Made by a program: the position numbers and the translations under genes. From Vulcanimicrobiota bacterium (GTDB lineage Bacteria > Vulcanimicrobiota > Vulcanimicrobiia > Eremiobacterales > Eremiobacteraceae): a stretch of 64,000 nucleotides of DNA. The stretch's first letter is position 1. Each line of letters opens with the position of its first letter. The stretch covers positions 736,001 to 800,000 of the forward strand of contig CAWETU010000001.1 of NCBI GenBank assembly GCA_963812135.1. The letters are read 5' to 3'. Positions 4,802-18,099 of this stretch are shown in pieces. The notes under the pieces were generated by a model. That model was given only the letters and a program-made list of their open reading frames with translations, was not told where the DNA came from and searched no databases.

Positions 4802-4831
4802 TTGACACGGGTGTACGAAGCACAGTAAACT
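4802..4831 (+). promoter_or_regulatory. Sigma70-type promoter of the metal ABC operon
   Basis: TTGACA (4802-4807), 18-nt spacer, TAAACT (4826-4831). Confidence 0.6.
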
Positions 4832-4854
4832 TATCGAGAATGATTCTCGATAAG
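4830..4854. promoter_or_regulatory. Fur/Zur-family operator, perfect 12-1-12 palindrome
   Basis: CTTATCGAGAAT-G-ATTCTCGATAAG overlapping the -10 element and the ATG; a Fur-family gene lies in the same operon. Confidence 0.85.
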
Positions 4855-5787
4855 CATAAGACGCGACGCGCCCTCAGGTCCGCAGTGGCACTCACCATCG
4901 CTGTGTTGACCGGCTGCACCTCGCAACAACCGACTAGCGCACCGCAACCCACGACGACTCCGTCGTCCAGCCAACGCCTCCAAGTCGCCGCGACGATCTC
5001 GACGCTCGCAGCGCTCGTCAAGGCGGTCGGCGGCGACAAGGTCGACGTCGTGAGCATTGTGCCGATCGGCGTCTCGCCCGAAACGTATGACCCCTCGCCT
5101 CGCGACCTCATCGCCGTTGCAAACGCCCATATCATTTTCAAGAACGGCGCCGGACTCGAGATCTGGCTCGACAAGATGCTGCGCGCCGTCGCCAAGCCGA
5201 GCACCAAAGTCGTTGTGCTTTCGGACGGCCTGCCGGTCGCGGGCGCCAAAGGCCCGGGCGAACCAGGCAATCCGCATCTTTGGCTCGATCCGACATACGC
5301 GCAGGTGTACGTCCATAAGATCGCCGCGGCGCTGAGCGAGGTCGATCCCGCGAATGCGGCCTACTATAGCGCGCGCGAGAAAGCCGAGCAGAAGCAGTTG
5401 GCGCAGCTCGACGCGTGGATCAAGCAGCGCATCGCCACCATTCCGCCGGCGAACCGCACGATGCTGGCGTTCCACGACGCGTGGTACTATTTCGATCGCC
5501 GCTACGGCATCCGCGACGTCGGCGCCATCGAGCAGTCGCCCGGCCAATCGCCGTCCGCCGCGTATCTCGCGGCGCTGATCGCGCAAGCGCGCGCGAGCGG
5601 CACCCGCGCGGTGTTCGCTGAACCGCAGTTCTCCCCTAAACTTGCCCAACAGCTCGCCGCCAGCGCCGGCATTAAGACGGTGACGAACCTCTACGATGAC
5701 ACGCTCGGCACGACGCCGGAGCTACAGACATACGACGGGATGTTGCGTTACGATGTCGATACTATCGTCAAGGCATTGACATCATGA
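4840..5787 (+). CDS. znuA: Metal (Zn/Mn) ABC transporter substrate-binding lipoprotein, ZnuA family
   Basis: Lipobox VLTGC; NGAGLE, NPHLWLDP, FHDAWYYF motifs. Confidence 0.9.
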   Translation: MILDKHKTRRALRSAVALTIAVLTGCTSQQPTSAPQPTTTPSSSQRLQVAATISTLAALVKAVGGDKVDVVSIVPIGVSPETYDPSPRDLIAVANAHIIFKNGAGLEIWLDKMLRAVAKPSTKVVVLSDGLPVAGAKGPGEPGNPHLWLDPTYAQVYVHKIAAALSEVDPANAAYYSAREKAEQKQLAQLDAWIKQRIATIPPANRTMLAFHDAWYYFDRRYGIRDVGAIEQSPGQSPSAAYLAALIAQARASGTRAVFAEPQFSPKLAQQLAASAGIKTVTNLYDDTLGTTPELQTYDGMLRYDVDTIVKALTS

Positions 5788-6695
5788 GCGAGCATGAAAC
5801 CGTGCACAACCACACCCACGTCGATCCGGCGACGCCGACCGCGCCGGCCGATCATAGCCATGCGGTCACCGCCACCAAGCCGCATCTGCATCAGCATCGC
5901 GATCATCGGCCGCCGGAGCCGCGCGATATATCGGTCGGCGCGAACAGCGCGATCGACTTGGAAGGCGTGTGCGCGGGCTACTTCGGCCGCGACGTGCTCG
6001 ACGAGGTCAGCCTCGATGTCAAGCGCGGCGAGTTCGTCGGGATCATCGGCCCCAACGGCGCCGGCAAATCGACGCTGCTCAAGGTCATCGCAGGACTGCT
6101 CGAGCCGCAGTGCGGCATCGTGCTCGTCCTCGGCAAGCCGCCCGGCCACGGCCAACCTATAGGCTACGTGCCGCAGACCGAAGCGGTGAATTGGACATTC
6201 CCGGTCAGCGTTCTCGACGTCGTGCTCATGGGTGTGTACGGCAAGCTCGGCCTGTTCCACCGGCCCGGCGAAACTGAGCACCGCGCCGCGTTGAGAGCGC
6301 TTGAGGAAGTCGGCATGCGCGAGTTTGCGGACGAGCAGATCGGCGAGCTCTCCGGTGGACAGCAGCAACGCGTTTTTGTGGCGCGCTCGCTGGTGCAAAA
6401 CCCCGAGCTGCTGCTGTTGGACGAGCCGATCTCCGGCGTCGACGCGACGAGCCAGCACGCGATCTTCACCTTGCTCGAGGAGCGCCAGAAAAGAGGCCAG
6501 ACGATCGTGGCCACAACGCACGACCTGTCGTGCGTGGCCACGTGGTTCGACAAAGTGCTGTGCCTCAACCATCGCGTGATCGCCTATGGGCCGCCGGACC
6601 AGGTGCTCACCGATGCGACGCTGTCCGCGACCTTCGGTAGTCACGTGTTGGTCATCCCCGACGCGCAGGCCGCAGTCCGGTCGGCGCAGCTCTAA
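5784..6695 (+). CDS. znuC: Metal ABC transporter ATPase with His-rich N-terminal extension
   Basis: [24 protein letters not shown]; 10 His in the first 41 aa. Confidence 0.92.
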
Positions 6696-6698
6696 GGC

Positions 6699-7565
6699 GT
6701 GGATTGGCTGCTCGTCCCCTTGCAACAGGACTTCATGGTGCGCGCGCTCATCGCGTCGACGCTGATCGGCTTGGTCTGCAGCGTCGTCGGCGTCTACGTC
6801 GTGCTGCGCAACCTCGCGTTCATCGGCGACGGCATCGCGCACGCGTCATTCGCCGGTATTGTGATCGCGTATCTTCTCAAGTTCAATCTCTACGTCGGCG
6901 GACTCATCGTGGCGGTGCTCACGGCGCTTGGTATCGGCGCGATCAGCCGGCGTTCGGAGGTTTCGGTGGACACGGCGATCGGCGTCATGTTCACGTCGGT
7001 TTTCGCGTTGGGCGTGCTTCTCATGTCGAGGGCGCGCAACTACATCGTCGATCTGCAAGATTTCTTGTTCGGAAATGTGCTCGGCGTCGACCGGACGGAC
7101 ATCATCCTTGTCGCGAGTCTGACGTGCGGTGTCCTCATCATCATCTTCGCGCTGTACAAAGAGCTGCTGTTCGCGTCGTTTGATCCGCTCATGGCGCAGG
7201 CGAGCGGCCTGCCGGTGACCGCGCTGAGCAACTTGCTGCTCGTCATCCTCGGCGTGACCATCATCGTGTCGCTGCAGGCTGCCGGCATCGTGCTCGTCGC
7301 AGCGCTGTTGGTGACGCCGGCGGCGGCTGCGTTCCAGTTGACCAACCGTTTCGGCGCGATGATGGCGACGTCGGCGGCGATCGGCGTCGGCTCGGCGATC
7401 GTCGGTCTGTACGCGTCGTACTATCTCAACGCGGCGTCGGGCTCGACGATCGTGCTCACCGCGACGTTGTGCTTCTTCGCGGCGATGGCGTTCTCGCCCA
7501 AGCGCCGCTCGTTGCTCACCCAAGTGCTTGAGGCGCGCCGTCGTGCGCGATCGGCGACCCCATGA
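6699..7565 (+). CDS. znuB: Metal ABC transporter permease
   Basis: GDGIAHASFAG, FLFGNVL, LLVTPAAAA; multiple TM segments. Confidence 0.92.
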   Translation: MDWLLVPLQQDFMVRALIASTLIGLVCSVVGVYVVLRNLAFIGDGIAHASFAGIVIAYLLKFNLYVGGLIVAVLTALGIGAISRRSEVSVDTAIGVMFTSVFALGVLLMSRARNYIVDLQDFLFGNVLGVDRTDIILVASLTCGVLIIIFALYKELLFASFDPLMAQASGLPVTALSNLLLVILGVTIIVSLQAAGIVLVAALLVTPAAAAFQLTNRFGAMMATSAAIGVGSAIVGLYASYYLNAASGSTIVLTATLCFFAAMAFSPKRRSLLTQVLEARRRARSATP

Positions 7566-7999
7566 GCGCGAAACCGCGCGAGCGCGACGCCCTCGACGAG
7601 CGCTTGGCGCGCAGCGGCGGGCGTATGACCACGCAGCGCAAGACGATCGTCGCCGAATTCGAGCGGCTGCGCCGCTACGTGACCCCGCAAGAACTGCATC
7701 GCAGGCTCGCCGACAGCCGCCCGCGCATCGCGCTGGCCACTGTCTACCGGACGCTTGAAATGCTCGAGGGCATCGGCGCTGCGTCGCGCGCGCCGCGCGC
7801 GCATGGTGAAGCGGCATATCTGTTCTGCGCGCCGACGCACCATCACCACGCCGTCTGCACCCAATGCGGCAAGGTCGATGACGTGCCGTGCGGCTCGGTC
7901 GAACGCTTCGCGCGCACGCTTGCGAAAGGTCTGCGCTTCCAGCTGCGCCAGCACAGCCTCGAGTTCTACGGCGTGTGCGCCCGCTGCTCCGGCGCCTAG
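7562..7999 (+). CDS. Fur-family transcriptional regulator (probably Zur)
   Basis: RMTTQR, LATVYRTL, HHHHAVCTQCG, FYGVCARC. Confidence 0.92.
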   Translation: MSAKPRERDALDERLARSGGRMTTQRKTIVAEFERLRRYVTPQELHRRLADSRPRIALATVYRTLEMLEGIGAASRAPRAHGEAAYLFCAPTHHHHAVCTQCGKVDDVPCGSVERFARTLAKGLRFQLRQHSLEFYGVCARCSGA

Positions 8000-8069
8000 C
8001 GACTTTTCCGCAACGCCCCAGCGCCCGCACGCCAGGCCCGGCGCCGCGCCGACGCGAATGACGCGCGCC

Positions 8070-8741
8070 ATGCCCCAAAAGCCATCAGCGCCGCCCGTCG
8101 ATCGGACGGGCCGTATAGCGACGCTCGCGTTCGGCGTGTTCGTCATCATCGGCATCATCGCGCTCATCGCCTACACGATGACGCATCAGAACGCGCCCGC
8201 CGCGGTCAGTCCGGCGGCGACGCAGACCGCGACACCGGTGCCGCGGCCGAGCGAAACGCCGGGAACCCACTTCAAATCGCAAGGCCACCCCGGTCACGAC
8301 CAGAAGGACCCGAGCAAGATGGGCAGCTTCCGTTACAATTCGGATCCGCCCACGTCCGGGATGCATTTCGAAAAGTTTACCGACGCCCTCATCAACACGA
8401 AACCGCTGCCGAAGTACATACAAGTGCATGTGCTCGAGCACGGCAACGTGTTGCTGCAGTACAATTGCACCTGTCCGGACATAGCCGGCGCGTTGGCGCA
8501 GATCGCGTCGAGTTACAACAACCGCCAACTACCCGCGGGCAGCGCTGAGTTCACTCCTGATATCGTGCAAACGATCGAAGAGAATGGCTCTGGCGTGATC
8601 GTCGCGCCCTACCCGGGCATGAAATCCAAGATTGCGCTCACCGCGTGGACTCGGCTGCAGACCTTTGACGCGATCGATCAGGCGAGCATGGTGCGCTTCA
8701 TCAACGCCTACTTGACCAATCAGGAGAACGCCGCTCAGTGA
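8070..8741 (+). CDS. DUF3105-domain membrane-anchored protein
   Basis: N-terminal TM; YNSDPPTSGMH, VHVLEHGNV, ALTAWTR; start may be 8058. Confidence 0.8.
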   Translation: MPQKPSAPPVDRTGRIATLAFGVFVIIGIIALIAYTMTHQNAPAAVSPAATQTATPVPRPSETPGTHFKSQGHPGHDQKDPSKMGSFRYNSDPPTSGMHFEKFTDALINTKPLPKYIQVHVLEHGNVLLQYNCTCPDIAGALAQIASSYNNRQLPAGSAEFTPDIVQTIEENGSGVIVAPYPGMKSKIALTAWTRLQTFDAIDQASMVRFINAYLTNQENAAQ

Positions 8742-9373
8742 AACTGACGAACAGCATCGTGCCTGCCGCGGCGATCGCAGCGCTCGTCCTGGCCGGCTGC
8801 GCCAAGGGCGACAGCAACACGAGCGCCGCCGCATCGCCTTCCGCCGCCTCGCTCGCGGCAGCCCCGAGCTCCTCGCCGCAGACGATCGCGCTGACGTTTT
8901 TGGGCACACACTACCCCTCGCAAGGCCACCGGCATTTCGACCCGGGCGAGTCGACCAAGTTCGCCTACAACTCGGACCCGCCGACGTCCGGCCCCCACTT
9001 GGAGATGTTCAGCTCTTCGTTCAACAACGCGACGCCGCTGCCGGCGTTCGTCCAAGCCCACCTGCTCGAGCACGGCAATATCTTGCTGCAATACAACTGC
9101 AACTGCCCCGATATCGCCGGCGCGCTTTATCAGATCGCGTACAAGTACGACAGCCGGCTCATCCCGCCGGACCAGATGCAGGCGACGCCGGCCCAAGTGC
9201 AGGCCGCCGAAGAGGCCGGTGAGTCGGTCGTCGTGGCGCCGTATCCGGGGATGAAGCACAAGATCGCGCTGACGGCGTGGACCCGCCTCGGCACGCTCGA
9301 CTCGATCGATCAGGCCAAGATCGAATCGTTCATCAACGCGTACCTGCACAACCAAGCGAACACCGCGCAATAA
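8738..9373 (+). CDS. DUF3105-domain lipoprotein (paralog of the upstream gene)
   Basis: Lipobox LAGC; YNSDPPTSGPH, HLLEHGNI, ALTAWTR. Confidence 0.82.
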   Translation: MKLTNSIVPAAAIAALVLAGCAKGDSNTSAAASPSAASLAAAPSSSPQTIALTFLGTHYPSQGHRHFDPGESTKFAYNSDPPTSGPHLEMFSSSFNNATPLPAFVQAHLLEHGNILLQYNCNCPDIAGALYQIAYKYDSRLIPPDQMQATPAQVQAAEEAGESVVVAPYPGMKHKIALTAWTRLGTLDSIDQAKIESFINAYLHNQANTAQ

Positions 9374-9379
9374 CCACTG

Positions 9380-11656
9380 TCACGGAATCGGTGCCGTGAT
9401 CTGCGCGGTGAATTGGAAACCGCGCGCGTATTGCGTCGTGTTGAACCCGTTGTTGAGTTTGATCAGGTACTGGTTGTTCGTGATATTCGTGGCCTGCAGT
9501 TGATAGCCGAAGCGACCCGGCGCTGCGAGACGGCCGACCGACGCATTGAGCTCCCAGTGCGCGGGCAACCGGCCAGGTCCGTTTTCGAACTGGACCGGGA
9601 AGCCGCTGCCGTAAATCGTCTGGAGACTCGCGTACATCGACCGGTCGGGTGAGAAGCGCCACGTGTATCCGGTGTTGAGCGTGTTGGTTTGATCATGATC
9701 CTCTGGCGCATATCCGTTCGCGCCTTGCAGCTGATCCGGCGAGAACAAGAACGTGCCGCCCGAGATGCCGGATGCGACTGATTGCGACAATCCGTACGAG
9801 ACGAAGTACGTATTGCCGTTGTCCTGCGTGCCCGTCACGCTCAGCTCGATTCCCTGAGCCCGGCCGGCGGTAGAGTTGAAGATCGTGAAGATCGGCGTCG
9901 AGCCGATCTGCGTCGTGTCGAGCACGTTGGCGACCGCACGCGCCCAGTAGTTCACGTACCACTTCGACCGCGGGTCGATTTGATGGGAAAAGCCGAACTC
10001 GTAGATCGAGTCGGTCTCGGGCTTGAGATCGTATACCGGCAAGCCTGAACCCCCGCTGACCACTACCGCGGAACGTCGCGTGTCTTCGAGCGCGGGCGCG
10101 GCATAAAGCCGCCCGTAGTACGCGTGGACGACGTCTTTAGGGTTGAGCGTCTGATAGTCGAGCTCGATGCGCGGGCTCACCTGATTGCCATCGGTGAAAC
10201 CGGTCGAGCGGTCGTAGCGCAGGCCGACATTGGCGGTGAAGGCCGATGACAAGATGCGCTTATCCTCGGCATAGATGCCGAAGTTCGTGCCGTTCTGCGA
10301 TACGTTGTCGTCGAAGCGCTGCAACGTCATGCTCGAGTCGATGAATTGGATGTTGAAGAGGCTCGTGAAGTTCTCGGTATAGGCCGTGAAGCCCATCTTG
10401 ACGTTGTCGCGCGGGTCGGTGCGGAACCACGTCGTCGTCAGGCCGTAATACGTCCCAACGCGGTCTTGGAACGTCGACGTCGCCGCGGTGCCGGCGAGAT
10501 CGTTGGGCGGATCGGGGAAGTACCTTACTTGGCCGCGGTTGTACCACGGCGCGATCTCAAGATAGCCTTGGCCGTCGCCGCTGAGCCGGTTGAAGATGAG
10601 GTTCGCGTATTGGCCGTTCTCATACTGATTGTCGTCAGTTCCGGGCGGCACGAAGCTCGGGCTGGCCGGGTTCGTGTCGATCGGGATCTGGAACGTGGCG
10701 AACAGGTTCGAGAAATGCAGCGCCCATGAGTCGCGCTTGTCAGGGTCGTACGTCAGCCGCAAGAATTCGTTCGATTGGCTCGCGGCGTCGTGTACCGGGT
10801 TGATCGTCGGCGTGTCCAGCCCGCGATCGGAACGCGTGAGGCCGAGCGAGACATAGCCCTTGAACGCATCGCCGCCAAAGGATTCGCTCAGCTGCCCCTG
10901 GGCGGACGCATAGTTCCCGCCGGTCAACACGATGTCGCCGCCGTTTCCGGACGGGCGCCTGGTGATGATGTTCACGACGCCGCCCTGGCGGCTGCCGCCG
11001 AACTCGGCTGGGAACGAGCCCGTGTAGACCTCGAGCGAACCGATGTCGCGGGGATCGAGGACCTCGGCGAACGACGATGAGGTCGTCTGCGGAACGGGCA
11101 CGCCGTCGATCTGATAGGCCACGCCGTGAAAACCGCGCACGACAGGCTCATCGTACGAGAAGGGCACGACGCCTGGCACCGTCGCCGTGACGTTGGCGAG
11201 TTTGAAATTGCTCGGCAGCGTCCGCACGAACGACGGCGTGAGGACGGCGACGCTTACCGGATGTCCAGCCTTGGCGACGGTGACGACACTCCCGAGCGTT
11301 TTCTTCGTGAGATGGAAATCGAGCACCGTGGAGCTGCCGGTGCTTACGGTCACCACGCCGCTTTGCGTGCCCAGAGCAGGCGCGCTTGCCGTGACGGTGT
11401 ACGTGTCGAACACGACGCGAGCGAACACGTAGCGTCCGTCGCTGCGCGTGACGGTATGGTCGGTCGTGCCTTCGCCGCTCTTGATGATCACCGTCGCATT
11501 CGCGACAGGCTTATCGTTGTCGTCGAAGACCGTGCCTTGGATCGCTCCATACGTGCTGGCGGCAGCGGGAGTTCCCACACACAGCAGCGCCGGGATGATG
11601 AGAAGAGAGAGCGCGACAAGCGCGCGCGCACGCGAATAAACAGAAAGAATACGCAA
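9380..11656 (-). CDS. TonB-dependent receptor with N-terminal carboxypeptidase-regulatory-like domain
   Basis: Signal peptide; plug motifs YQIDGVPV and FPAEFGG..GGVVNIITR; GLRYD; NITNNQY. TTG 11656 follows GGAGG (ORF track starts at 11671). Confidence 0.88.
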   Translation of the reverse strand: MRILSVYSRARALVALSLLIIPALLCVGTPAAASTYGAIQGTVFDDNDKPVANATVIIKSGEGTTDHTVTRSDGRYVFARVVFDTYTVTASAPALGTQSGVVTVSTGSSTVLDFHLTKKTLGSVVTVAKAGHPVSVAVLTPSFVRTLPSNFKLANVTATVPGVVPFSYDEPVVRGFHGVAYQIDGVPVPQTTSSSFAEVLDPRDIGSLEVYTGSFPAEFGGSRQGGVVNIITRRPSGNGGDIVLTGGNYASAQGQLSESFGGDAFKGYVSLGLTRSDRGLDTPTINPVHDAASQSNEFLRLTYDPDKRDSWALHFSNLFATFQIPIDTNPASPSFVPPGTDDNQYENGQYANLIFNRLSGDGQGYLEIAPWYNRGQVRYFPDPPNDLAGTAATSTFQDRVGTYYGLTTTWFRTDPRDNVKMGFTAYTENFTSLFNIQFIDSSMTLQRFDDNVSQNGTNFGIYAEDKRILSSAFTANVGLRYDRSTGFTDGNQVSPRIELDYQTLNPKDVVHAYYGRLYAAPALEDTRRSAVVVSGGSGLPVYDLKPETDSIYEFGFSHQIDPRSKWYVNYWARAVANVLDTTQIGSTPIFTIFNSTAGRAQGIELSVTGTQDNGNTYFVSYGLSQSVASGISGGTFLFSPDQLQGANGYAPEDHDQTNTLNTGYTWRFSPDRSMYASLQTIYGSGFPVQFENGPGRLPAHWELNASVGRLAAPGRFGYQLQATNITNNQYLIKLNNGFNTTQYARGFQFTAQITAPIP

Positions 11657-11713
11657 GGAAATGGCCTCCACAAGGGTGTGGCGGCCAAAGGGCGGGATGC
11701 CGGTTTTGGCCGC

Positions 11714-12386
11714 CTATGCTACAAGGGCAGCGAACACCGGAGGAGGACGGCTGGCGATGTGGCGCGCCAGTAGGGGCGGAGCGGGCGACGCTGCGGCAAG
11801 CGCGAGCGTGCGCAACTGCGGCGCGCAGTGCGGGCGGACCGGTTGCGACAGCCGGTCGATCGCGACCAGCACGAAGCGCGCGATGGCGGCGACGCTTTCA
11901 CACGCCGCACGCGCGAAGGCGCGCAGCGCGAGCGCGAGCGTCGCGCCGATGATGATGTGGACGAACGGGGCGCTGAAGTGGCCGGGTCCGAAAATCGCGC
12001 CCGAGCCCAAAACCGCCGTACGAAGAAAGCGCTTGTTCAGACAGCTCTCCGACGACGAGCGACATGAGCTGTAAACCGACGACCGTCGCGATCAGACGGC
12101 TGGGCGAAATCTCCCGCACTGCATCGAGCGCCGGCAACAGCCACTCGGCATCCTGGAACTTGTCGCGGGCGCTTTCGATCACGCCACGCGCGATGAGATA
12201 ACCGGCGATGAGCAGCAGGCCTAGTGCAAGGTAGGCAAAGGGCGACTGCAGCGAGTGGGTGTAATGCGCGGGGACGCCGCCGAAGAGATGCGCGTTTTCG
12301 ATGTTCAACTGCGTAGCATGGCCGAGCAGGGAGGCGCTCAACGCAACCGCCCCGACGAGCAACCAGCACACGTCCCTTCGAGCCAT
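11714..12386 (-). CDS. Multi-pass membrane leader protein ending in RPPP, apparent +1 frameshift at ~12000-12002
   Basis: ORFs 11898..12386 and 11714..12010 join into ~223 aa if one G of ctcGGGcgcg is removed; His-containing loops; ends HIASRPPPVFAALVA; same architecture as 16589..17227. Confidence 0.65.
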
Positions 12387-12477: not shown

Positions 12478-13116
12478 CTACGCGCCCGCTTTATGCGCGG
12501 CCGCCAGCAACTGTGATTCCGGCATCTCGCCGCTGCCGGCGAACGTGATCGTCCCCTTGGCGTTCACGATGTAGATCGTCGGAAAGCCGTTGAGCCCCCA
12601 CGCTTGCGCGACCTTGAGATCGGCATCGAACGCCGACGGCCACGTGACGTTGAAGTACTTGTCGAACGAGTCGACGTCCGTCTGATTCTCCGGGATCGGA
12701 TTGCCCTGCGTCGAGCCCGCGGCGTACGGCGATCCCGTCACGGAAAGCATGCCGAAGCGCGACTCCGGCAGCTTGGCGCGCAGCGATCGCAAGACTCCGG
12801 TCATGCGCTGGCAATGCGGGCACCACGTCGCGAACAGTTCGAGCATGTACGGCTTGCCGGCAAACGTCGCGTTGGTGATCGGACCGAGCATCGTCTGCAC
12901 GGAGAAGGGCGGCGCCTGCTGGCCGGCTTTGTGCGGGGGCGGCACCGACGGGATCGCGTTGGGCGCGACGGCTGCGCTCGGCAGTTTGTGCATCTGGGTC
13001 CATGCGTAGACGACGATCGCCACCACGACGAGGACGCCGACGATCAGCGATACAATGGTGCCGGGCGCCGGTCCAGATCGCGCGCCGGAAGGTCGTGACG
13101 GTTGTCTCGCGCTCAA
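12478..13116 (-). CDS. TlpA/ResA-family thiol-disulfide oxidoreductase, membrane anchored
   Basis: N-terminal TM; FATWCPHC; GFPT cis-Pro motif. Confidence 0.88.
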   Translation of the reverse strand: MSARQPSRPSGARSGPAPGTIVSLIVGVLVVVAIVVYAWTQMHKLPSAAVAPNAIPSVPPPHKAGQQAPPFSVQTMLGPITNATFAGKPYMLELFATWCPHCQRMTGVLRSLRAKLPESRFGMLSVTGSPYAAGSTQGNPIPENQTDVDSFDKYFNVTWPSAFDADLKVAQAWGLNGFPTIYIVNAKGTITFAGSGEMPESQLLAAAHKAGA

Positions 13117-13536
13117 TTCTTACCTCTTGCCGCTCGCATCATCGTCGGCTTGGTGTTCCTCGCCGCCGGTGTTTTGAAAGTGGGTCACGCGCCGGATCTC
13201 GGTTCCACCATCGTCGCGTTCCGGCTCGACTTGCCGCCCGCGTTCGTCGGTTTCGCGGCCATCGCTTTGCCGCTGTTTGAAATCGTGCTAGGCGTCTACC
13301 TGCTGCTCGGCTGGCAGCTGCGCATCGTCTCGATCGCGGCTTTCATCGTCTTGTTGATCTTCATCGCCGCGCTTGCCTCGGTCGTGATGCGCGGCATCCC
13401 GACCCCGTGCGGCTGCTTCGGGCCGGCCGAAACGGATCCGGTCACATGGTGGACGATCGCGCGCGATGGCGCCGCCATCATCCCGGCGGCTTATCTGGTG
13501 TGGTGGTCATGGCGCCGTGCGCCCGCGACGCCGTGA
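13102..13536 (+). CDS. MauE/DoxX-family membrane protein
   Basis: RIIVGLVFLAAGVLK, LPLFEIVLG, PCGCFG, TIARD; four TM segments. Confidence 0.85.
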   Translation: MSRAQFLPLAARIIVGLVFLAAGVLKVGHAPDLGSTIVAFRLDLPPAFVGFAAIALPLFEIVLGVYLLLGWQLRIVSIAAFIVLLIFIAALASVVMRGIPTPCGCFGPAETDPVTWWTIARDGAAIIPAAYLVWWSWRRAPATP

Positions 13537-13566: not shown

Positions 13567-14025
13567 CTATTTGACCATGTTCATGACGTCTGGGCCGATG
13601 CCGTGCACTTCGACGACCGTCTCGCCTTTGCACATCGCATAGTGATGCAATCCGGCGGGCAGCTCGACGAATGCGCCAGCAGGTAGCGTCACCATCTTCG
13701 CTGGATCCATCTTGTCGCCGATGCCGGCCATGAACGTGCCGCTCAGCACGGTGACCTGCTCAGATTGCGGATGCGAGTGCGGCGGGAACTTGAAGCCATC
13801 CTCGCATTTGTAGCGCGCGGCGTACTGGCCACCCGATTTAGTCGGATCGCCGAAGAGCACTGCGTACGAAACACCGGTCATCCCCTTGACGGGCTGCCAG
13901 TTCACGGCGCCCGGTTGGACGATGATGGGCGCCATAGGATTGGGCATGGCGATGGAGCTCGACGCGAGTCCGACGGCCGCCACCGCGAACACGACCGCAA
14001 ACGCGAGAACCTTACCCTTGTGCAT
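13567..14025 (-). CDS. Exported cupin-domain protein
   Basis: Signal peptide; PPHSHPQSEQVTVLSG and LPAGLHH cupin motifs; Met-rich. Confidence 0.85.
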   Translation of the reverse strand: MHKGKVLAFAVVFAVAAVGLASSSIAMPNPMAPIIVQPGAVNWQPVKGMTGVSYAVLFGDPTKSGGQYAARYKCEDGFKFPPHSHPQSEQVTVLSGTFMAGIGDKMDPAKMVTLPAGAFVELPAGLHHYAMCKGETVVEVHGIGPDVMNMVK

Positions 14026-14113: not shown

Positions 14114-16502
14114 TCACTGGCCCGTGCCTAGCTTGATGCCAACATAGAAACGCACGGCCCGGCGCGTAATGGTTGCCCTGCGCGTTGAAGTACGTGATCC
14201 AGTACTGATGGTTGAGAAGGTTGTTGACGCGCACCCACGCCTGCGCGTTGGGCCCGATCGAGAAGCCTTTCTCCGCCGAGAAGATCGTGTGCGGGGTGTA
14301 CTTGCAAAAGCCCGGGGTGTCCGGCGGACAGGCCGCCGACGAAAGTCCGCTGCCGTACTCCTCGTCCATCGAGAACCAACCGCCGCGCGTGTCGTTGAAC
14401 ACGACGCCCGACGTCGCGCCATAACGCTGCTCGTGGTCTGCCGGCGTCCAATCGGTCGGTGACCCGAAGCACGGCGCGAGCAATTGCGTCTCGCAACCCT
14501 TGTTGACCGAATACGTGTGGTTGAAGCTCACGTAGAACCGGCCGTTATGGACGAGATTCTGCTGATAGTACGCGGTCTGCGTCGCGATGCGCCCGAGCGT
14601 ATAGTTGATGTCCTGGTGCAGCAGCGTGACGCCGACCTGCGTGTCGTCGATGAGATCCGTCGCGTTTTTCTGCATGATGCGCAGTCCTAGATCGCCGGGC
14701 CCGAGCGGCAGATGCCCGCCGATCTCGTAATCCGAATCGCGCTGCGGCTTGAGATCGAATTGCGCGATCGTCGGCTGCAGCGGCAGATTGAGCAAGAATG
14801 CGGCTCCCGGCGAGACGTTCTCGAATGAGAACGGCGTGAAGAACCGACCGTAGTACACGTACGCGCTTGCCCGTGGCGAGAAATACCGCGTGAACTTCAC
14901 GCGCGGGCTGAACTGCGTGAATCCCTGGTCGAACTGCGTCGAGAAGACCTGGAACGCGGTCCATCGCACGCCGTAGTCCAGCTCGTAGGCCGAGCCCATC
15001 AGCCAGCTGTCTTGGATGTATGCGACCTCGATGTGGCCGACGTTGGGCGAGTTATCGATCACCGGAAACGAGGCGAGCGGCGTCGATGGTGCGAGCAACG
15101 GCGCCAAATAGTTGCCCGGTTGCAGTGTGATGTCGTAGTACTTGGGCACGTTGGACATGTCGTACGACGCCCCCCAACGGATCGCGTGGACGCGGCTGCT
15201 CAACGCGTAGTCGAAGTTCAACAGGTAGTCGTTCGACGTGCGGTGATCGGCTAACGTGTTGGCGCACGTCACGTTGCTATAGTTCGGGATGGTGAGCGCG
15301 TTAAAGCAATCCGTCGGCATCCCGCCGTTGGCGGCGTTGAGCGCGAAGCCGTAGATCCAATCGTTGAGCGGATCGCCGAAGTCGCGGATCTGCGAGCGCC
15401 GATAGCCGCCGCCGAACGACATCGCGCCGTGGTCGCCGATCGCCTGCCGGAACTGGAGCGCGGCGAACGTATCGTCTTGGGTCTCGTTATCGTCCGAGCT
15501 CGCCGGCTGTCCGTCGTCGGTGGCCACCGGGATCTGGAACGTGCGATACGAGTGCGACAGCGTGAGATTCACGAAATTGCTGCCGCCGTTCCCATAAGGC
15601 AGCGTGTAGCGCACGAACTGATTGGCGTCACTCGCCTGGTTGTGCAACGATACGGCTTGGGGAGGATCCAGACCGCGCCCCGTGCTGCCGTTTTGGACTG
15701 CAAGCACGACCGAGCCATTGCCCACGCGATCGTGATAACCGAGCGTGCCGTCGAACGTGGAGAACGAACCCCCGTCAGCCTCGAACGTCGCACCCGGTCG
15801 CTCAACGTGGATGCCGGTTCGCGTGCTGATGTTGAGCACGGTGGCGAAGCGCTCGCCGTATTGCGCGGGATACGCGCCTTGGATCACGTCGACGAAGGCC
15901 GCATCGCCCGGGTTGAACTCGGAGCCGACGACACGATTGAGCGCTTGCGGCAGCGCGAGACCGTCAACGATATAGTTGATGTCGCCGTGATCGCCGTTGA
16001 TGTGCACGACGCCGTTGGCGCCGCGCGCTGCGCCTGGAAGCTGGATGAGCATTTCCGGAAAGCTGCCGCTAGCCGGCGTGCGCTCGAGGACAGTCGAGTT
16101 GAGGACCAGATCTGTGCCCGATCCGCGGATCGGCGCGCTGCGCACAGCGGACGCGGTGACGCTGCCGATCGTCTTGACGCTGATCTGGAGCGTGACGTCG
16201 GCGCCGCTCGCGGGCAGATCTACGGCGAGCGTGCCGCTGCCGCCGCTCGACGTGGCGATCAACGTGTACGAGCCAGGCGAGAGCGAGCCGAAACGGAAAC
16301 GACCTTCGGACGTCGTGCGAGCGGTCTGGACCACGTTGTTGCCTGTGGCCGTGACCGTCGCGTTCGCGACCGGCTTGCCGCTGCTCAAAACGGTGCCCGT
16401 CAGATACGCATTTGCCGCCATGCTCGGCAGCGGCGCCACGAGCGCGAGCACGATGGCGACAAACGATAGCGCCCGCACTGCGCGGGAAATAACCATGAAC
16501 AT
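14114..16502 (-). CDS. TonB-dependent receptor, apparent +1 frameshift at ~14148-14150
   Basis: Signal peptide; YIVDGL, YPAQYGER, NNLLNHQY. Removing one T of gcgTTTctat gives the beta-strand C-terminus GRAFYVGIKLGTGQ* at 14114 and removes the overlap with the cupin gene. Confidence 0.88.
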
Positions 16503-16508
16503 TTGAAT

Positions 16509-16606
16509 TCCCTCTCGACAGATTAGATGTAACGGTCGAGTTTAATCGACCGAACGAGTGTAGCGGTCGAATTTATCGACCGGCACGCTCAAGCTATCGA
16601 GAGGGA
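16509..16606 (-). promoter_or_regulatory. Predicted SD-sequestering stem between RPPP leader and TonB receptor
   Basis: mRNA arm UCCCUCUCGAUAG (16606-16594) pairs 13/13 (one G-U) with CUGUCGAGAGGGA (16521-16509), which contains the SD. Confidence 0.7.
16529..16582. repeat. Two tandem GTAG-type REP-like palindromes
   Basis: GTAACGGTCGA-gtttaa-TCGACCG and GTAGCGGTCGA-attta-TCGACCG; third copy at 50568. Confidence 0.65.
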
Positions 16607-17227
16607 CGGAGGCGGGCGGTTGTAGAGCTGGCTGAACCAGATGAAATGCGGCAGGCCGAGCGGCGAGCGATCGCGCGATGCGACCAGCGCTGCGCCACGC
16701 GGCGTTGGCGTGACGAAGAAGGCGGCGATGGCGGCGGCGATCGAGGGAAGTCTGCGTCCGATCGCCCACGACGCGAGCCCCATGAAGATGACGGTCAGCG
16801 CCGCGCCGATAATGCCTGCGGCGATGTCGTGTCCGCAGAAGGGGCAACCTTCGCCGATCTGCGTCAGCAGCCCCAACGAAAGCTGCAGCCCCGCGGTGAG
16901 CGCGAAGAACGGACCGCGGCCGCGAAACGGCAGCGTCTCAAGACCGAGGTGCAGCTCACGTTTGAAATCTCTGCCGCCCGCGGATCTGCGCCACAGCGCG
17001 AGTGTCTGATGAAGGGCGACGCCGAACGCGAGCAGCCCCCCGATTCCCAGGTAGAGATGCTTTGGCGAGAGCGCGACGCTGTCTGCGTCGCTGCCCATCG
17101 CGAAAAACTCAGAAGCCAGGTGCGCGACGATGCTGCCGAGCACGACCAGTGCCAAATAGATCGGCACGAGTTGGTGTGGCGTGGAAGCCCGAGGTCGCAT
17201 ACTCAATATATCGTCAGCCGGCAACAT
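16589..17227 (-). CDS. Multi-pass membrane leader protein with CXXC-x-H and C-terminal RPPP (CruR/DUF2946-like logic)
   Basis: ~4 hydrophobic segments, EGCPFCGHD, ends LYNRPPPSLSIA; start may be ATG 17200. Confidence 0.7.
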   Translation of the reverse strand: MLPADDILSMRPRASTPHQLVPIYLALVVLGSIVAHLASEFFAMGSDADSVALSPKHLYLGIGGLLAFGVALHQTLALWRRSAGGRDFKRELHLGLETLPFRGRGPFFALTAGLQLSLGLLTQIGEGCPFCGHDIAAGIIGAALTVIFMGLASWAIGRRLPSIAAAIAAFFVTPTPRGAALVASRDRSPLGLPHFIWFSQLYNRPPPSLSIA

Positions 17228-17240
17228 TTCTTGTGCCTGG

Positions 17241-17265
17241 CTTATTGAGAATCAATCGCAATAAG
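17241..17265. promoter_or_regulatory. Second Fur/Zur-family operator
   Basis: CTTATTGAGAATCAATCGCAATAAG matches the 4830 box at 20/25 positions; directly upstream of the minus-strand leader/TBDR unit. Confidence 0.8.
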
Positions 17266-17295
17266 TCCTGCCGGCTTCTCGCTCCGAAGGTACGA

Positions 17296-18099
17296 CTACT
17301 TGGCGGGCCTCGGCGTTTCAGCTGCGGCGCCGAGCAGGCCCGGTTCCAGCCACATCCCGCCGTCTGCGACGAGGACCGCGCCGTTGACGTACGACGCGTC
17401 GTCGGAGAGCAAAAACGCCGCGGCAAGCGCCACTTCTTCGGGCGTCTCGAGGCGGCCGAGAGGCACCCGGCTTGCGATGCGGTTGCGGATCTCTTCCGTC
17501 GGAAAAAGTTTTTCGGCTGAACCCGGCGTGTTGACGACTCCAGGGCACAGCGCGTTCGTGCGGATGCCGTAACGACCCCACTCGACCGCCAGCGTTTGCG
17601 TCAGCGACACAACGCCTGCTTTTGCGGCGGCGGAATGGATCGTGCCCGGTCCGCCGGTCCACGCATAACTAGCGACGATGTTGAGGATGGAACCGCCGCG
17701 CCCCGCCGCGATCATCGCTTTGCCGGCCGCGCGCGCGCAATAAAACGTGCCGTTGAGCACGATGTTGATCACCGCATTCCAGCCATTGGGCGAGAGCTCT
17801 TCCGCGCGCACGATGAAGTTGCCGGCCGCGTTGTTGACAAGCGCGTCGATGCGGCCGTATTTGGCGACGACGCCGTCGACGAGCACTTGCACCTGATCCG
17901 GCACGCGCACGTCGGTCTGCGCCGACTCGGCGTCACCGCCTGCGGCGCGGATGCCGTCCACGGTTTCGGCGAGCGGTTCCGGGCGCCGGCCCGCGACGAC
18001 GATGCGTCCGCCAAGTCGCGCCAAGTGTTCTGCCATCGCGCGGCCCAAACCGGTCCCGCCGCCGGTGATGACAATCGTCTTGTCCTTGAAGTCAGGCAT
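17296..18099 (-). CDS. SDR oxidoreductase, 2,4-dienoyl-CoA reductase-like
   Basis: TGGGTGLG, NNAAGNF, HSAAAKAGV. Confidence 0.85.
   Translation of the reverse strand: MPDFKDKTIVITGGGTGLGRAMAEHLARLGGRIVVAGRRPEPLAETVDGIRAAGGDAESAQTDVRVPDQVQVLVDGVVAKYGRIDALVNNAAGNFIVRAEELSPNGWNAVINIVLNGTFYCARAAGKAMIAAGRGGSILNIVASYAWTGGPGTIHSAAAKAGVVSLTQTLAVEWGRYGIRTNALCPGVVNTPGSAEKLFPTEEIRNRIASRVPLGRLETPEEVALAAAFLLSDDASYVNGAVLVADGGMWLEPGLLGAAAETPRPAK

Follow-up and report, generated by a model that had tools for sequence, protein, structure and literature searches.

Organization of the leader and receptor genes

The window analysed here is a 64,000-nt stretch of the genome of a Vulcanimicrobiota bacterium (contig CAWETU010000001.1, positions 736,001 to 800,000), and the locus of interest within it consists of two leftwards-transcribed genes. 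The first is a leader gene encoding a polytopic membrane protein with an Arg-Pro-Pro-Pro (RPPP) motif close to its stop codon, and the second encodes a TonB-dependent receptor whose Shine-Dalgarno sequence (SD) is predicted to pair with the codons that follow the RPPP motif (Table 1). A preliminary description, made from the nucleotide sequence and a list of open reading frames (ORFs), had proposed that a ribosome arrested at RPPP would melt this pairing and switch on receptor translation, with metal binding or membrane insertion relieving the arrest.

Table 1. Coordinates of the leader, its RNA elements, the receptor and related features in the window.
Feature	Position	Strand	Details
Fur-family-type operator (putative)	17241-17265	minus	palindrome CTTATTGCGATTGATTCTCAATAAG, 5′ of the leader
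Leader gene, four-TM membrane protein	16589-17227	minus	from the ORF list; longest ORF 212 aa; C-terminal end NRPPPSLSIA
GEGCPFCGHD loop between TM3 and TM4	16826-16855	minus	residues 125-134; candidate periplasmic metal site with H36, E40, M44 and H57
Arg-Pro-Pro-Pro codons, putative arrest site	16607-16618	minus	CGC CCG CCT CCG, then SLSIA and TGA (16591-16589)
Stem P1, 5′ arm (anti-SD)	16594-16606	minus	UCCCUCUCGAUAG; last codons of the leader, the next 13 nt after RPPP
Two hairpins enclosed by P1	16529-16590	minus	GGTCGA-N5/6-TCGACC cores; the first starts within the leader stop codon
Stem P1, 3′ arm with receptor SD	16509-16521	minus	CUGUCGAGAGGGA; SD GAGAGGGA 6 nt before the receptor ATG (16502-16500)
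TonB-dependent receptor, N-terminal CarboxypepD_reg	14114-16502	minus	Pfam CarboxypepD_reg 4.5e-13
Leader2, paralogous four-TM leader	11714-12386	minus	two frames in the assembly (12386-11898, 12010-11714); end IASRPPPVFAALVA
Second CarboxypepD_reg TonB receptor	9380-11671	minus	Pfam; SD GGAGG 11665-11669
Second strong box and operon	4830-7999	plus	box 4830-4854, then ZnuA-type binding protein, ABC ATPase, ABC-3 permease and Fur-family gene

The outline given in the preliminary description, of a leader of ~200 amino acids (aa) with about four transmembrane (TM) segments, a CPFCGH motif and a terminal RPPP, agrees with the sequence and the ORF list and with an AlphaFold2 model (30 sequences, mean predicted local distance difference test score 76), which has four long helices (residues 21–51, 55–81, 106–125 and 132–171), a short helix (85–97) and a disordered tail (172–212). 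The true start codon of the leader is probably the ATG at 17200 (MRPRAS..., 203 aa), because relatives start there and a conserved CGATA motif lies 12–20 nt upstream. The motif has the form (G/T)(A/C)CGATA(T/A/C), occurs at 17200–17225 on the minus strand and precedes the conserved ATG-CG(N) start of the leader in relatives at the same distance; if it is a −10 element, the leader mRNA would be almost devoid of a 5′ untranslated region.

The basic segments of the protein are its N-terminus, the Arg/Lys-rich loop at 80–105 and the GRRLP that follows helix 4, and the acidic ones are the 43–57 loop and GEGCPFCGHD. Read by the positive-inside rule, this distribution of charges implies an N-in/C-in topology, with the His, Glu and Cys residues probably at the periplasmic ends of the helices.

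The receptor of the window matches the Pfam Plug model below its cut-off (0.0019) and has no barrel match; its orthologues match TonB_dep_Rec_b-barrel and/or Plug above the cut-off. The association of leader and receptor, which the preliminary description had proposed to test in homologues, is well conserved, with a CarboxypepD_reg TonB receptor of ~790 aa directly downstream of the leader in 11/12 loci examined with Pfam.

Conservation of the C-terminal motif and its spacing

The leader ends in ...LYN-RPPP-SLSIA-stop. An alignment of 30 close relatives shows no substitution at R204, P205, P206 or P207, and the ~30 residues directly before them vary more than any other part of the protein. Among 40 members with identities down to 23%, no column other than E40 and R-x-P-P is invariant; the middle Pro is present in at least 90% and E126 is nearly invariant. 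Conservation of RPPP, on which the preliminary proposal depended, extends through the family: in 168 proteins of at least 170 aa pooled from word-indexed and phmmer searches, 162 have R[PA]PP no more than 16 residues from the C-terminus (160 RPPP, 2 RAPP; two natural family members carry NRAPP), and all 25 additional proteins from later searches end likewise. Between 0 and 13 residues separate the motif from the stop in the 168 proteins; the Arg is preceded by N in 132 and by S in 17, with F (64) or Y (62) one position earlier. The RPPP codons vary synonymously, with Arg using six codons and each Pro all four, and selection therefore acts on the peptide.

The loop between TM3 and TM4 is similarly constrained in the close clade, where C128, P, F, C131, H133 and D134 are nearly invariant (30 close relatives) and a Cys/His motif lies at a fixed distance from the C-terminal Pro-rich motif. 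The distance from the glutamate of GEG to the Arg of the motif is 78 residues in 112 proteins and 72–82 in nearly all others, and the sequence of this linker is variable.

These features resemble those of RAPP-like arrest peptides, as the leader combines R-x-P-P (x = A, G, S or P) near the C-terminus with a localisation signal, in the form of TM segments, and a downstream gene on the same strand. Motifs of the form RxPP with x = G, A, S or P are reported to induce arrest and were found in random screens (PMC12992588). EF-P is encoded in the genome from which the window derives.

A conserved stem predicted to mask the receptor Shine-Dalgarno sequence

RNAfold of the minus strand of 16490–16630 gives exactly the structure outlined in the preliminary description: a 13-bp helix (P1; 16606–16594 with 16521–16509, one G-U) that closes two hairpins and contains the receptor SD. 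Its minimum free energy (MFE) is −54.4 kcal/mol (z = −5.98), and 0/200 dinucleotide shuffles fold as well.

Conservation of the stem was assessed in 42 fetched loci and the window, of which 32 non-identical loci were kept; those dropped were a weak Flavobacteriales match that is not a member (L011), three loci with no RPPP-tailed leader ORF (L036, L041 and L042), five exact duplicates, and two in which the start was mis-called (L012 and L027) and which by eye have the same stem. An SD-masking stem of the SecM-secA and CutF-cutO type is predicted in 31/32 of these close loci, where the MFE structure pairs all four SD-core nucleotides with nucleotides beginning −1 to +3 after the last Pro codon; the exception (L040) pairs its SD with the Pro codons themselves. 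P1 has a median of 12 bp (range 2–17) and a median z of −3.6 across the 32 loci, which have 28 distinct 5′ arms, and duplexes between arms of the same locus average −20.6 kcal/mol versus −14.2 kcal/mol for cross-locus combinations.

When RNAalifold was run on MAFFT alignments, misalignment of the inner parts limited it to P2 (alignment A3) or to 8 bp of P1 (A4), and per-locus folds and a hand-given structure were used instead. With the structure supplied to a 12-sequence alignment, 98.2% of the cells are paired, versus 27–49% when the partner is slid by 1–3 columns. In four of the eight P1 pairs both partners have changed (A-U to G-C and G-C to U-A, three times each), and the covariation score of 0.311 (shuffled, 0.184) is reached in 0/500 shuffles. 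The anti-SD pairing, whose loss in homologues would, like that of RPPP, have refuted the preliminary proposal, is retained with covariation in the close loci, and the conserved Leu-Gln or Leu-Ser after PPP is largely a protein shadow of CUCC.

In a distant genome family (20 loci), the leader tails consist of [N/S/Y/K]RPPP followed by 3–7 residues, and the partner of the SD is formed by the post-PPP codons, by the stop codon or, in the FRYRPPP clade, by CGUCCUCC itself.

The hairpin cores within P1 recur in three loci of the SLSIA clade (L002, L012 and L018), and the spacers of other clades contain GCAUCA...UGAUGC, with the leader stop codon in the loop, and a GC-rich hairpin. Their conservation within clades might point to a role as structural spacer or as binding site.

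Predicted effect of a ribosome at the RPPP codons

A stalled ribosome was modelled by masking a footprint of −12 to +15 around a P site placed on the third codon of RPPP, and the ribosome-binding site (RBS) of the receptor was taken as −15 to +6. This P-site register is the one toeprinted for the RAPP motif of CruR (PMC12992588). The median energy for opening the RBS in the 32 close loci is 14.1 kcal/mol in the free mRNA, 14.3 kcal/mol with a ribosome 30 nt upstream and 7.6 kcal/mol with a ribosome at RPPP, and the drop is at least 5 kcal/mol in 23/32 loci and at least 3 kcal/mol in 28/32. At the window locus the energy falls from 17.8 to 6.8 kcal/mol. The claim that a stalled ribosome melts the stem is thus supported by the modelled opening energies, and it stands less well by the equilibrium occupancy of the SD, which is considered below.

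A shared putative operator and a ZnuA/MntC-type operon

The preliminary description also noted a Fur-type box upstream of the leader, and this holds: a palindrome cTTATTGAGAATnATTCTCAATAAg, which we take to resemble a 7-1-7 Fur box, lies upstream of the leader in 25/32 non-identical loci, with the core TGAGAATNATTCTCA matched at 11 or more of 14 positions. In the 2.79-Mb genome, a weight matrix built from the leader boxes scores just two sites higher than 14 bits, that of the leader itself and that at the head of the ZnuA-type operon listed in Table 1. The latter is the best copy and overlaps the first ATG (4840) of the gene for the ZnuA-family binding protein; the Fur-family regulator gene at the end of the operon (7562–7999, plus strand) is the only one in the genome. 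The leader thus has a conserved inverted-repeat candidate operator of the 7-1-7 type, shared with one further presumed target, as a predicted member of a Fur-family regulon would, and the gene content of this regulon points to Zn or Mn as the likely metal. The nearest NCBIfam models for the binding protein are MntC (216 bits) and AztC (189 bits). The ABC ATPase of the operon has a His-rich N-terminal extension. A third, weak box (C1:1367821) lies inside an ORF and is taken as a chance match.

A paralogous leader upstream of a second receptor

The window contains a second module of the same design, in which a paralogous leader (leader2) is followed by a 10-bp hairpin, GGAGG and a second TonB receptor. 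Its RPPP codons lie at 11738–11749 and its C-terminal end is ...HIASRPPPVFAALVA-stop. Leader2 is frameshifted near 11900–12010 in the assembly; four same-genus genomes carry it intact (223 aa), and matches occur in 18/26 genomes of the family, two of the 18 being flagged unpublished. The relationship between the two leaders is evident in a profile comparison (hhalign probability 94%, E 1.2e-7), and with the profile of close leader relatives (A1) the window's genome has one detectable leader copy, leader2 ORF 11898–12386 giving no match at E≤10. Positions common to both leaders are a His and a Glu in TM1, LP in the cytoplasmic loop, LQ...GE in TM3, GH, and RPPP.

The leader2 mRNA folds such that GCCGUCCUC, comprising the Arg and the first two Pro codons, pairs with the SD of the second receptor (z = −3.5), and in relatives of leader2 the Pro codons CCUCC(U/A)CC pair with GGUGGAGG. 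Leader2 retains [S/N]RPPP plus 8–9 aa, the SD pairing and the downstream receptor; the design is thus strongly supported by an independent paralogue that keeps motif, pairing and target. The two leaders are divergently transcribed in three genomes, where the box lies between them.

A third ORF, outside the window (G000:C1:1989119–1989763, plus strand, equivalent to L082:420–1064), encodes 214 aa with ~4 hydrophobic segments; its SMESLEQ motif is reminiscent of leader2, its C-terminal end is ERAPPSFAR, and a LytR_cpsA_psr gene follows after 43 nt. The homology of this ORF is not significant (hhalign E 0.032) and its RNA is not unusually structured (z +0.48), such that a canonical RAPP leader in the same genome is only a lead.

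Protein family and taxonomic range

A word-indexed search returned 106 leader homologues, nearly all 190–215 aa long, and the organism names attached to them are only Candidatus Eremiobacteraceae or Eremiobacteraeota; an exhaustive phmmer search over cluster representatives gives 81 clusters. The wider profile searches (alignments A5 and A6) found only the same family, with organism names that are solely Eremiobacter-type. Within a sample of 301 genomes of the phylum, 47 (4 of them flagged unpublished) encode a member, including 18/21 in the window's family and 28/207 in a second family, compared with 0/72 across 19 other families. By these searches and this sample, the leader family is confined to one class of Eremiobacterota.

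The suggestion that this may be an undescribed family fits the database comparisons. The leader matches no Pfam family at E≤0.1 and no NCBIfam model, and DUF2946 (PF11162) is matched by 0/40 diverse members at E≤10; a six-frame search of the genome for DUF2946 gives a best score of 12.6 bits, below the 23.7 cut-off and located elsewhere in the genome. The leader is not a small protein with one Sec signal peptide, as in DUF2946, but one of ~203 aa with four predicted long helices. Structural searches with the AlphaFold2 model are uninformative on the fold (no Foldseek match in PDB at E≤0.001; VIA-align wide best Z 6.6, to generic helical bundles), and Rfam over 16000–17600 gives chance-level matches only (E≥1). 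Literature searches on RPPP with arrest, and on Eremiobacterota with TonB or zinc, found no description of the family. The third-nearest ESM Atlas cluster to the leader (score 0.94, 218 aa, no Pfam match, 140 members) is mostly from Actinomycetota and may be related to the published Streptomyces RAPP leaders with four TM segments.

A proposed two-tier control of receptor synthesis

The leader-receptor module most probably works as the preliminary description proposed, and arrest-controlled unmasking of the receptor SD is assigned a probability of about 0.7. The analysis establishes the anatomy of the locus, the conservation of motif, spacing, pairing and box, the synteny and the predicted energetics; arrest of the ribosome, the metal that is sensed and the direction of the response (relief or induction of arrest by metal) are inferred. 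The module would control an outer-membrane metal receptor at two tiers. At the first, the sole Fur-family repressor probably binds the palindrome 5′ of the leader and would shut the operon off when the cytoplasm has sufficient metal, most likely Zn or Mn. At the second, the leader would act as an inner-membrane sensor with four TM segments and a periplasm-facing His/Glu/Cys cluster, fixed 78 residues before the invariant [F/Y]-N-R-P-P-P. In mRNA free of ribosomes, the codons immediately 3′ of PPP (or, in some clades, those of R-P-P) would pair with the receptor SD, closing a junction with one to two inner hairpins and blocking initiation. If a ribosome stalled with its P and A sites on the last Pro codons, it would cover or unwind the anti-SD arm and so keep the receptor RBS open until the stall ends. 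A pull on the nascent chain, exerted as the TM3-TM4 hairpin folds or inserts in a metal-dependent manner, would then release the stall, such that metal sufficiency re-closes the stem and turns receptor synthesis off.

A more specific version is put forward tentatively. The family may comprise co-translational TM sensors of Zn (or Mn). Metal bound in the periplasm by the His/Glu(/Cys) cluster would drive TM3 and TM4 to pack together, and this packing, acting through the 78-residue ruler, would pull the nascent chain away from an RPPP stall that resists EF-P. Such a system would be the first translational attenuator of Zn/Mn uptake, atop Zur/Mur-type repression, and its paralogues would have been co-opted for further genes of the envelope (a second receptor, an RND pump and perhaps an LCP enzyme).

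Several observations weigh against arrest-controlled unmasking or against parts of it. At equilibrium the median probability that the SD is unpaired rises merely from 0.06 to 0.22 with a ribosome at RPPP, and exceeds 0.5 in just 5/32 loci, because the freed SD re-pairs weakly with short alternative partners. Conservation of the pairing is weaker in the distant family than in the close loci: pairing there is less regular, with the SD core fully paired in 12/20 loci (three of the misses have no recognisable SD at the called start), and the opening energy drops by at least 3 kcal/mol in 11/20. The CXXC, whose conservation the preliminary description had proposed to test together with that of RPPP, is nearly invariant in the close clade and is gone from many distant members that retain RPPP; Cys-based metal sensing therefore cannot be the family-wide principle. 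The MntC and AztC scores of the binding protein are below both cut-offs, which leaves Zn and Mn as the candidate metals. One leader, the second copy in its genome (L061), precedes an AcrB-type gene instead of a receptor. From published tests, an A-to-P substitution in ApdA/ApdP keeps arrest only partly (PMC12992588), and most RAPP-like segments of Escherichia coli and Bacillus subtilis proteins are reported to give no arrest. Lastly, every translating ribosome opens the stem transiently, and coupling without arrest would therefore also work.

This last point leads to plain translational coupling, in which the stem simply ties translation of the receptor to that of the leader and RPPP would at most cause constitutive pausing, prolonging the open state without any sensing. 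The 5′ arm of P1 lies within the last 5–13 codons of the leader, so any ribosome reaching the stop unwinds it, the spacer has no terminator-like site (the two found sit within the upstream dehydrogenase gene and their number is within shuffle expectation), and CXXC is dispensable in many members. Coupling nevertheless leaves unexplained the invariant R-P-P-P with its conserved [F/Y]-N, the fixed 78-residue distance to a conserved Glu and the conserved polar residues at the periplasmic helix ends, and spacers of 32–99 nt are long for so simple an arrangement; it is accordingly regarded as unlikely.

A further alternative is that the product is chiefly a working membrane protein, such as an inner-membrane partner or permease for the substrate of the receptor, with RPPP a protein-level motif for interaction or turnover and the stem a means of balancing stoichiometry. 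A mean column identity of 52% over the four helices, conserved charged or polar residues inside them (H36, E40, E126 and D134) and the lack of an inner-membrane transporter gene in the leader-receptor operon (ORF list) would suit such a role. This is nonetheless improbable, as the tail at 172–212 is predicted to be disordered and is, the motif aside, the least conserved part of the protein, RPPP is always 0–13 residues from the stop and always adjoins the anti-SD, and no transporter matches the fold, though the fold searches are uninformative. Attenuation as in CruR, where a stalled ribosome would shield the transcript from Rho-dependent termination and the stem would be secondary, has a precedent 5′ of a TonB receptor (PMC9426467) but is very improbable here, given spacers that are short (32–99 nt), almost fully base-paired and with little unstructured C-rich RNA, and a conserved pairing partner that is the SD itself, with covariation.

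Comparison with known arrest-controlled genes

Arrest-controlled unmasking of the receptor SD has close relatives in print, and the preliminary description overrated the novelty of the scheme: RAPP/RGPP leaders before TonB receptors, RAPP leaders with four TM segments and SD-masking stems opened by a PPP stall (CutF) have all been published. CutF of Rhodobacter capsulatus, a DUF2946 protein with CxxxC and GPPPRL, is reported to stall under copper and to open a stem that shields the cutO RBS (10.1101/2025.02.05.636593). The leader resembles CutF of the cutFOG operon in being a membrane-targeted nascent protein with periplasm-facing Cys ligands and a C-terminal PPP a few residues before the stop, for which metal sensing and stalling are here proposed, and in having a stem-loop over the RBS of the next gene, whose opening by a stalled ribosome is here modelled. 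CutF differs, as described, in being a small DUF2946 protein with a Sec signal peptide, in having GPPPRL with no Arg before PPP, and in sensing Cu, which induces stalling and controls a detoxifying oxidase. The leader in turn has four TM segments, no Pfam match, [F/Y]NRPPP, an uptake receptor as its target and a probable Zn/Mn regulon context.

CruR (Bp2923) of Bordetella pertussis is a DUF2946 protein with CXXC and RAPP, acting through Rho-dependent termination, and copper is proposed to relieve its arrest (PMC9426467); arrest with Pro codons in the P and A sites is reported in vitro (PMC12992588). Like the leader, CruR is encoded by the first gene of a TonB-transporter operon and has CXXC and a C-terminal R-x-P-P at conserved spacing (PMC9426467). 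Unlike the leader, it is described as a ~140-aa DUF2946 protein with a signal peptide, RAPP, a 162-nt spacer, Rho-dependent termination and a response to copper.

A survey published in EMBO J in 2025 reports that RAPP/RGPP leaders are enriched 5′ of TonB receptors and metal genes, nearly all of the TonB ones bearing signal peptides, and describes Streptomyces RAPP leaders with four TM segments and conserved His/Met/Cys (PMC12992588). The survey covers RAPP and RGPP only, and RPPP occurs 0 times in its main text (PMC12992588). The leader shares with ApdA, ApdP, the SecM class and the RAPP/RGPP upstream ORFs an R-x-P-P near the C-terminus of a small secretory or membrane protein 5′ of a same-strand gene, and differs from the TonB-receptor leaders of the survey, with their predicted signal peptides, in its four TM helices; the comparison with the Streptomyces examples is by description. 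It resembles SecM-secA (background in 10.1101/2025.02.05.636593) in that a stall near the C-terminus, here proposed, melts a stem hiding an SD and a pull on the nascent chain releases the stall, and differs in that SecM monitors secretion, has the motif RAGP and controls the SecA motor.

New elements are a polytopic sensor family outside DUF2946, RPPP as a variant of the motif, a probable Zn/Mn setting in which the Fur-family operator is shared with another operon, and duplication of the module into paralogues. Metal-responsive arrest peptides are recent and are experimentally known from two copper systems, both based on a small exported DUF2946 protein. Here a polytopic membrane protein unrelated to DUF2946, from a soil phylum with hardly any cultured members, appears to provide the same logic of stall motif, anti-SD and receptor gene, which would, if true, extend the principle of metal-responsive arrest beyond copper and DUF2946; motif searches restricted to RAPP/RGPP miss whole families. 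The system also offers an unusually clean natural record of covariation, with more than 28 anti-SD arms in two registers (anti-SD after or within the Pro codons), and its strict 78-residue spacing provides a testable case for force-coupled release through folding of a membrane hairpin.

Variant modules and neighbouring genes

The leader of L061 (G166:C51:106464–110833, minus strand) ends in FKRPPPRLLNA, and an AcrB/RND-type gene begins 111 nt further on, such that, by its position, this type of leader may have been co-opted for efflux as well.

One extra T in a T-run at 14148–14150 shifts the frame of the first receptor 12 codons before its natural stop, and its ORF runs on to 13902. Because the receptor is intact in same-genus genomes, a contig of run X1 is one base shorter at 14148, and leader2 is also frameshifted, the evidence suggests that both frameshifts are homopolymer assembly errors and that the genes are not pseudogenes.

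A cupin gene with a signal peptide (13567–14025, minus strand) lies 3′ of the first receptor; it was considered as part of the module and rejected, as it is present in just 2/41 loci. Between the two metal loci (7755–9373, plus strand, and 12478–13536) are two adjacent DUF3105 genes, a TlpA/redoxin-like gene with WCPHC (12478–13116, minus strand) and a MauE/DoxX gene (13102–13536, plus strand).

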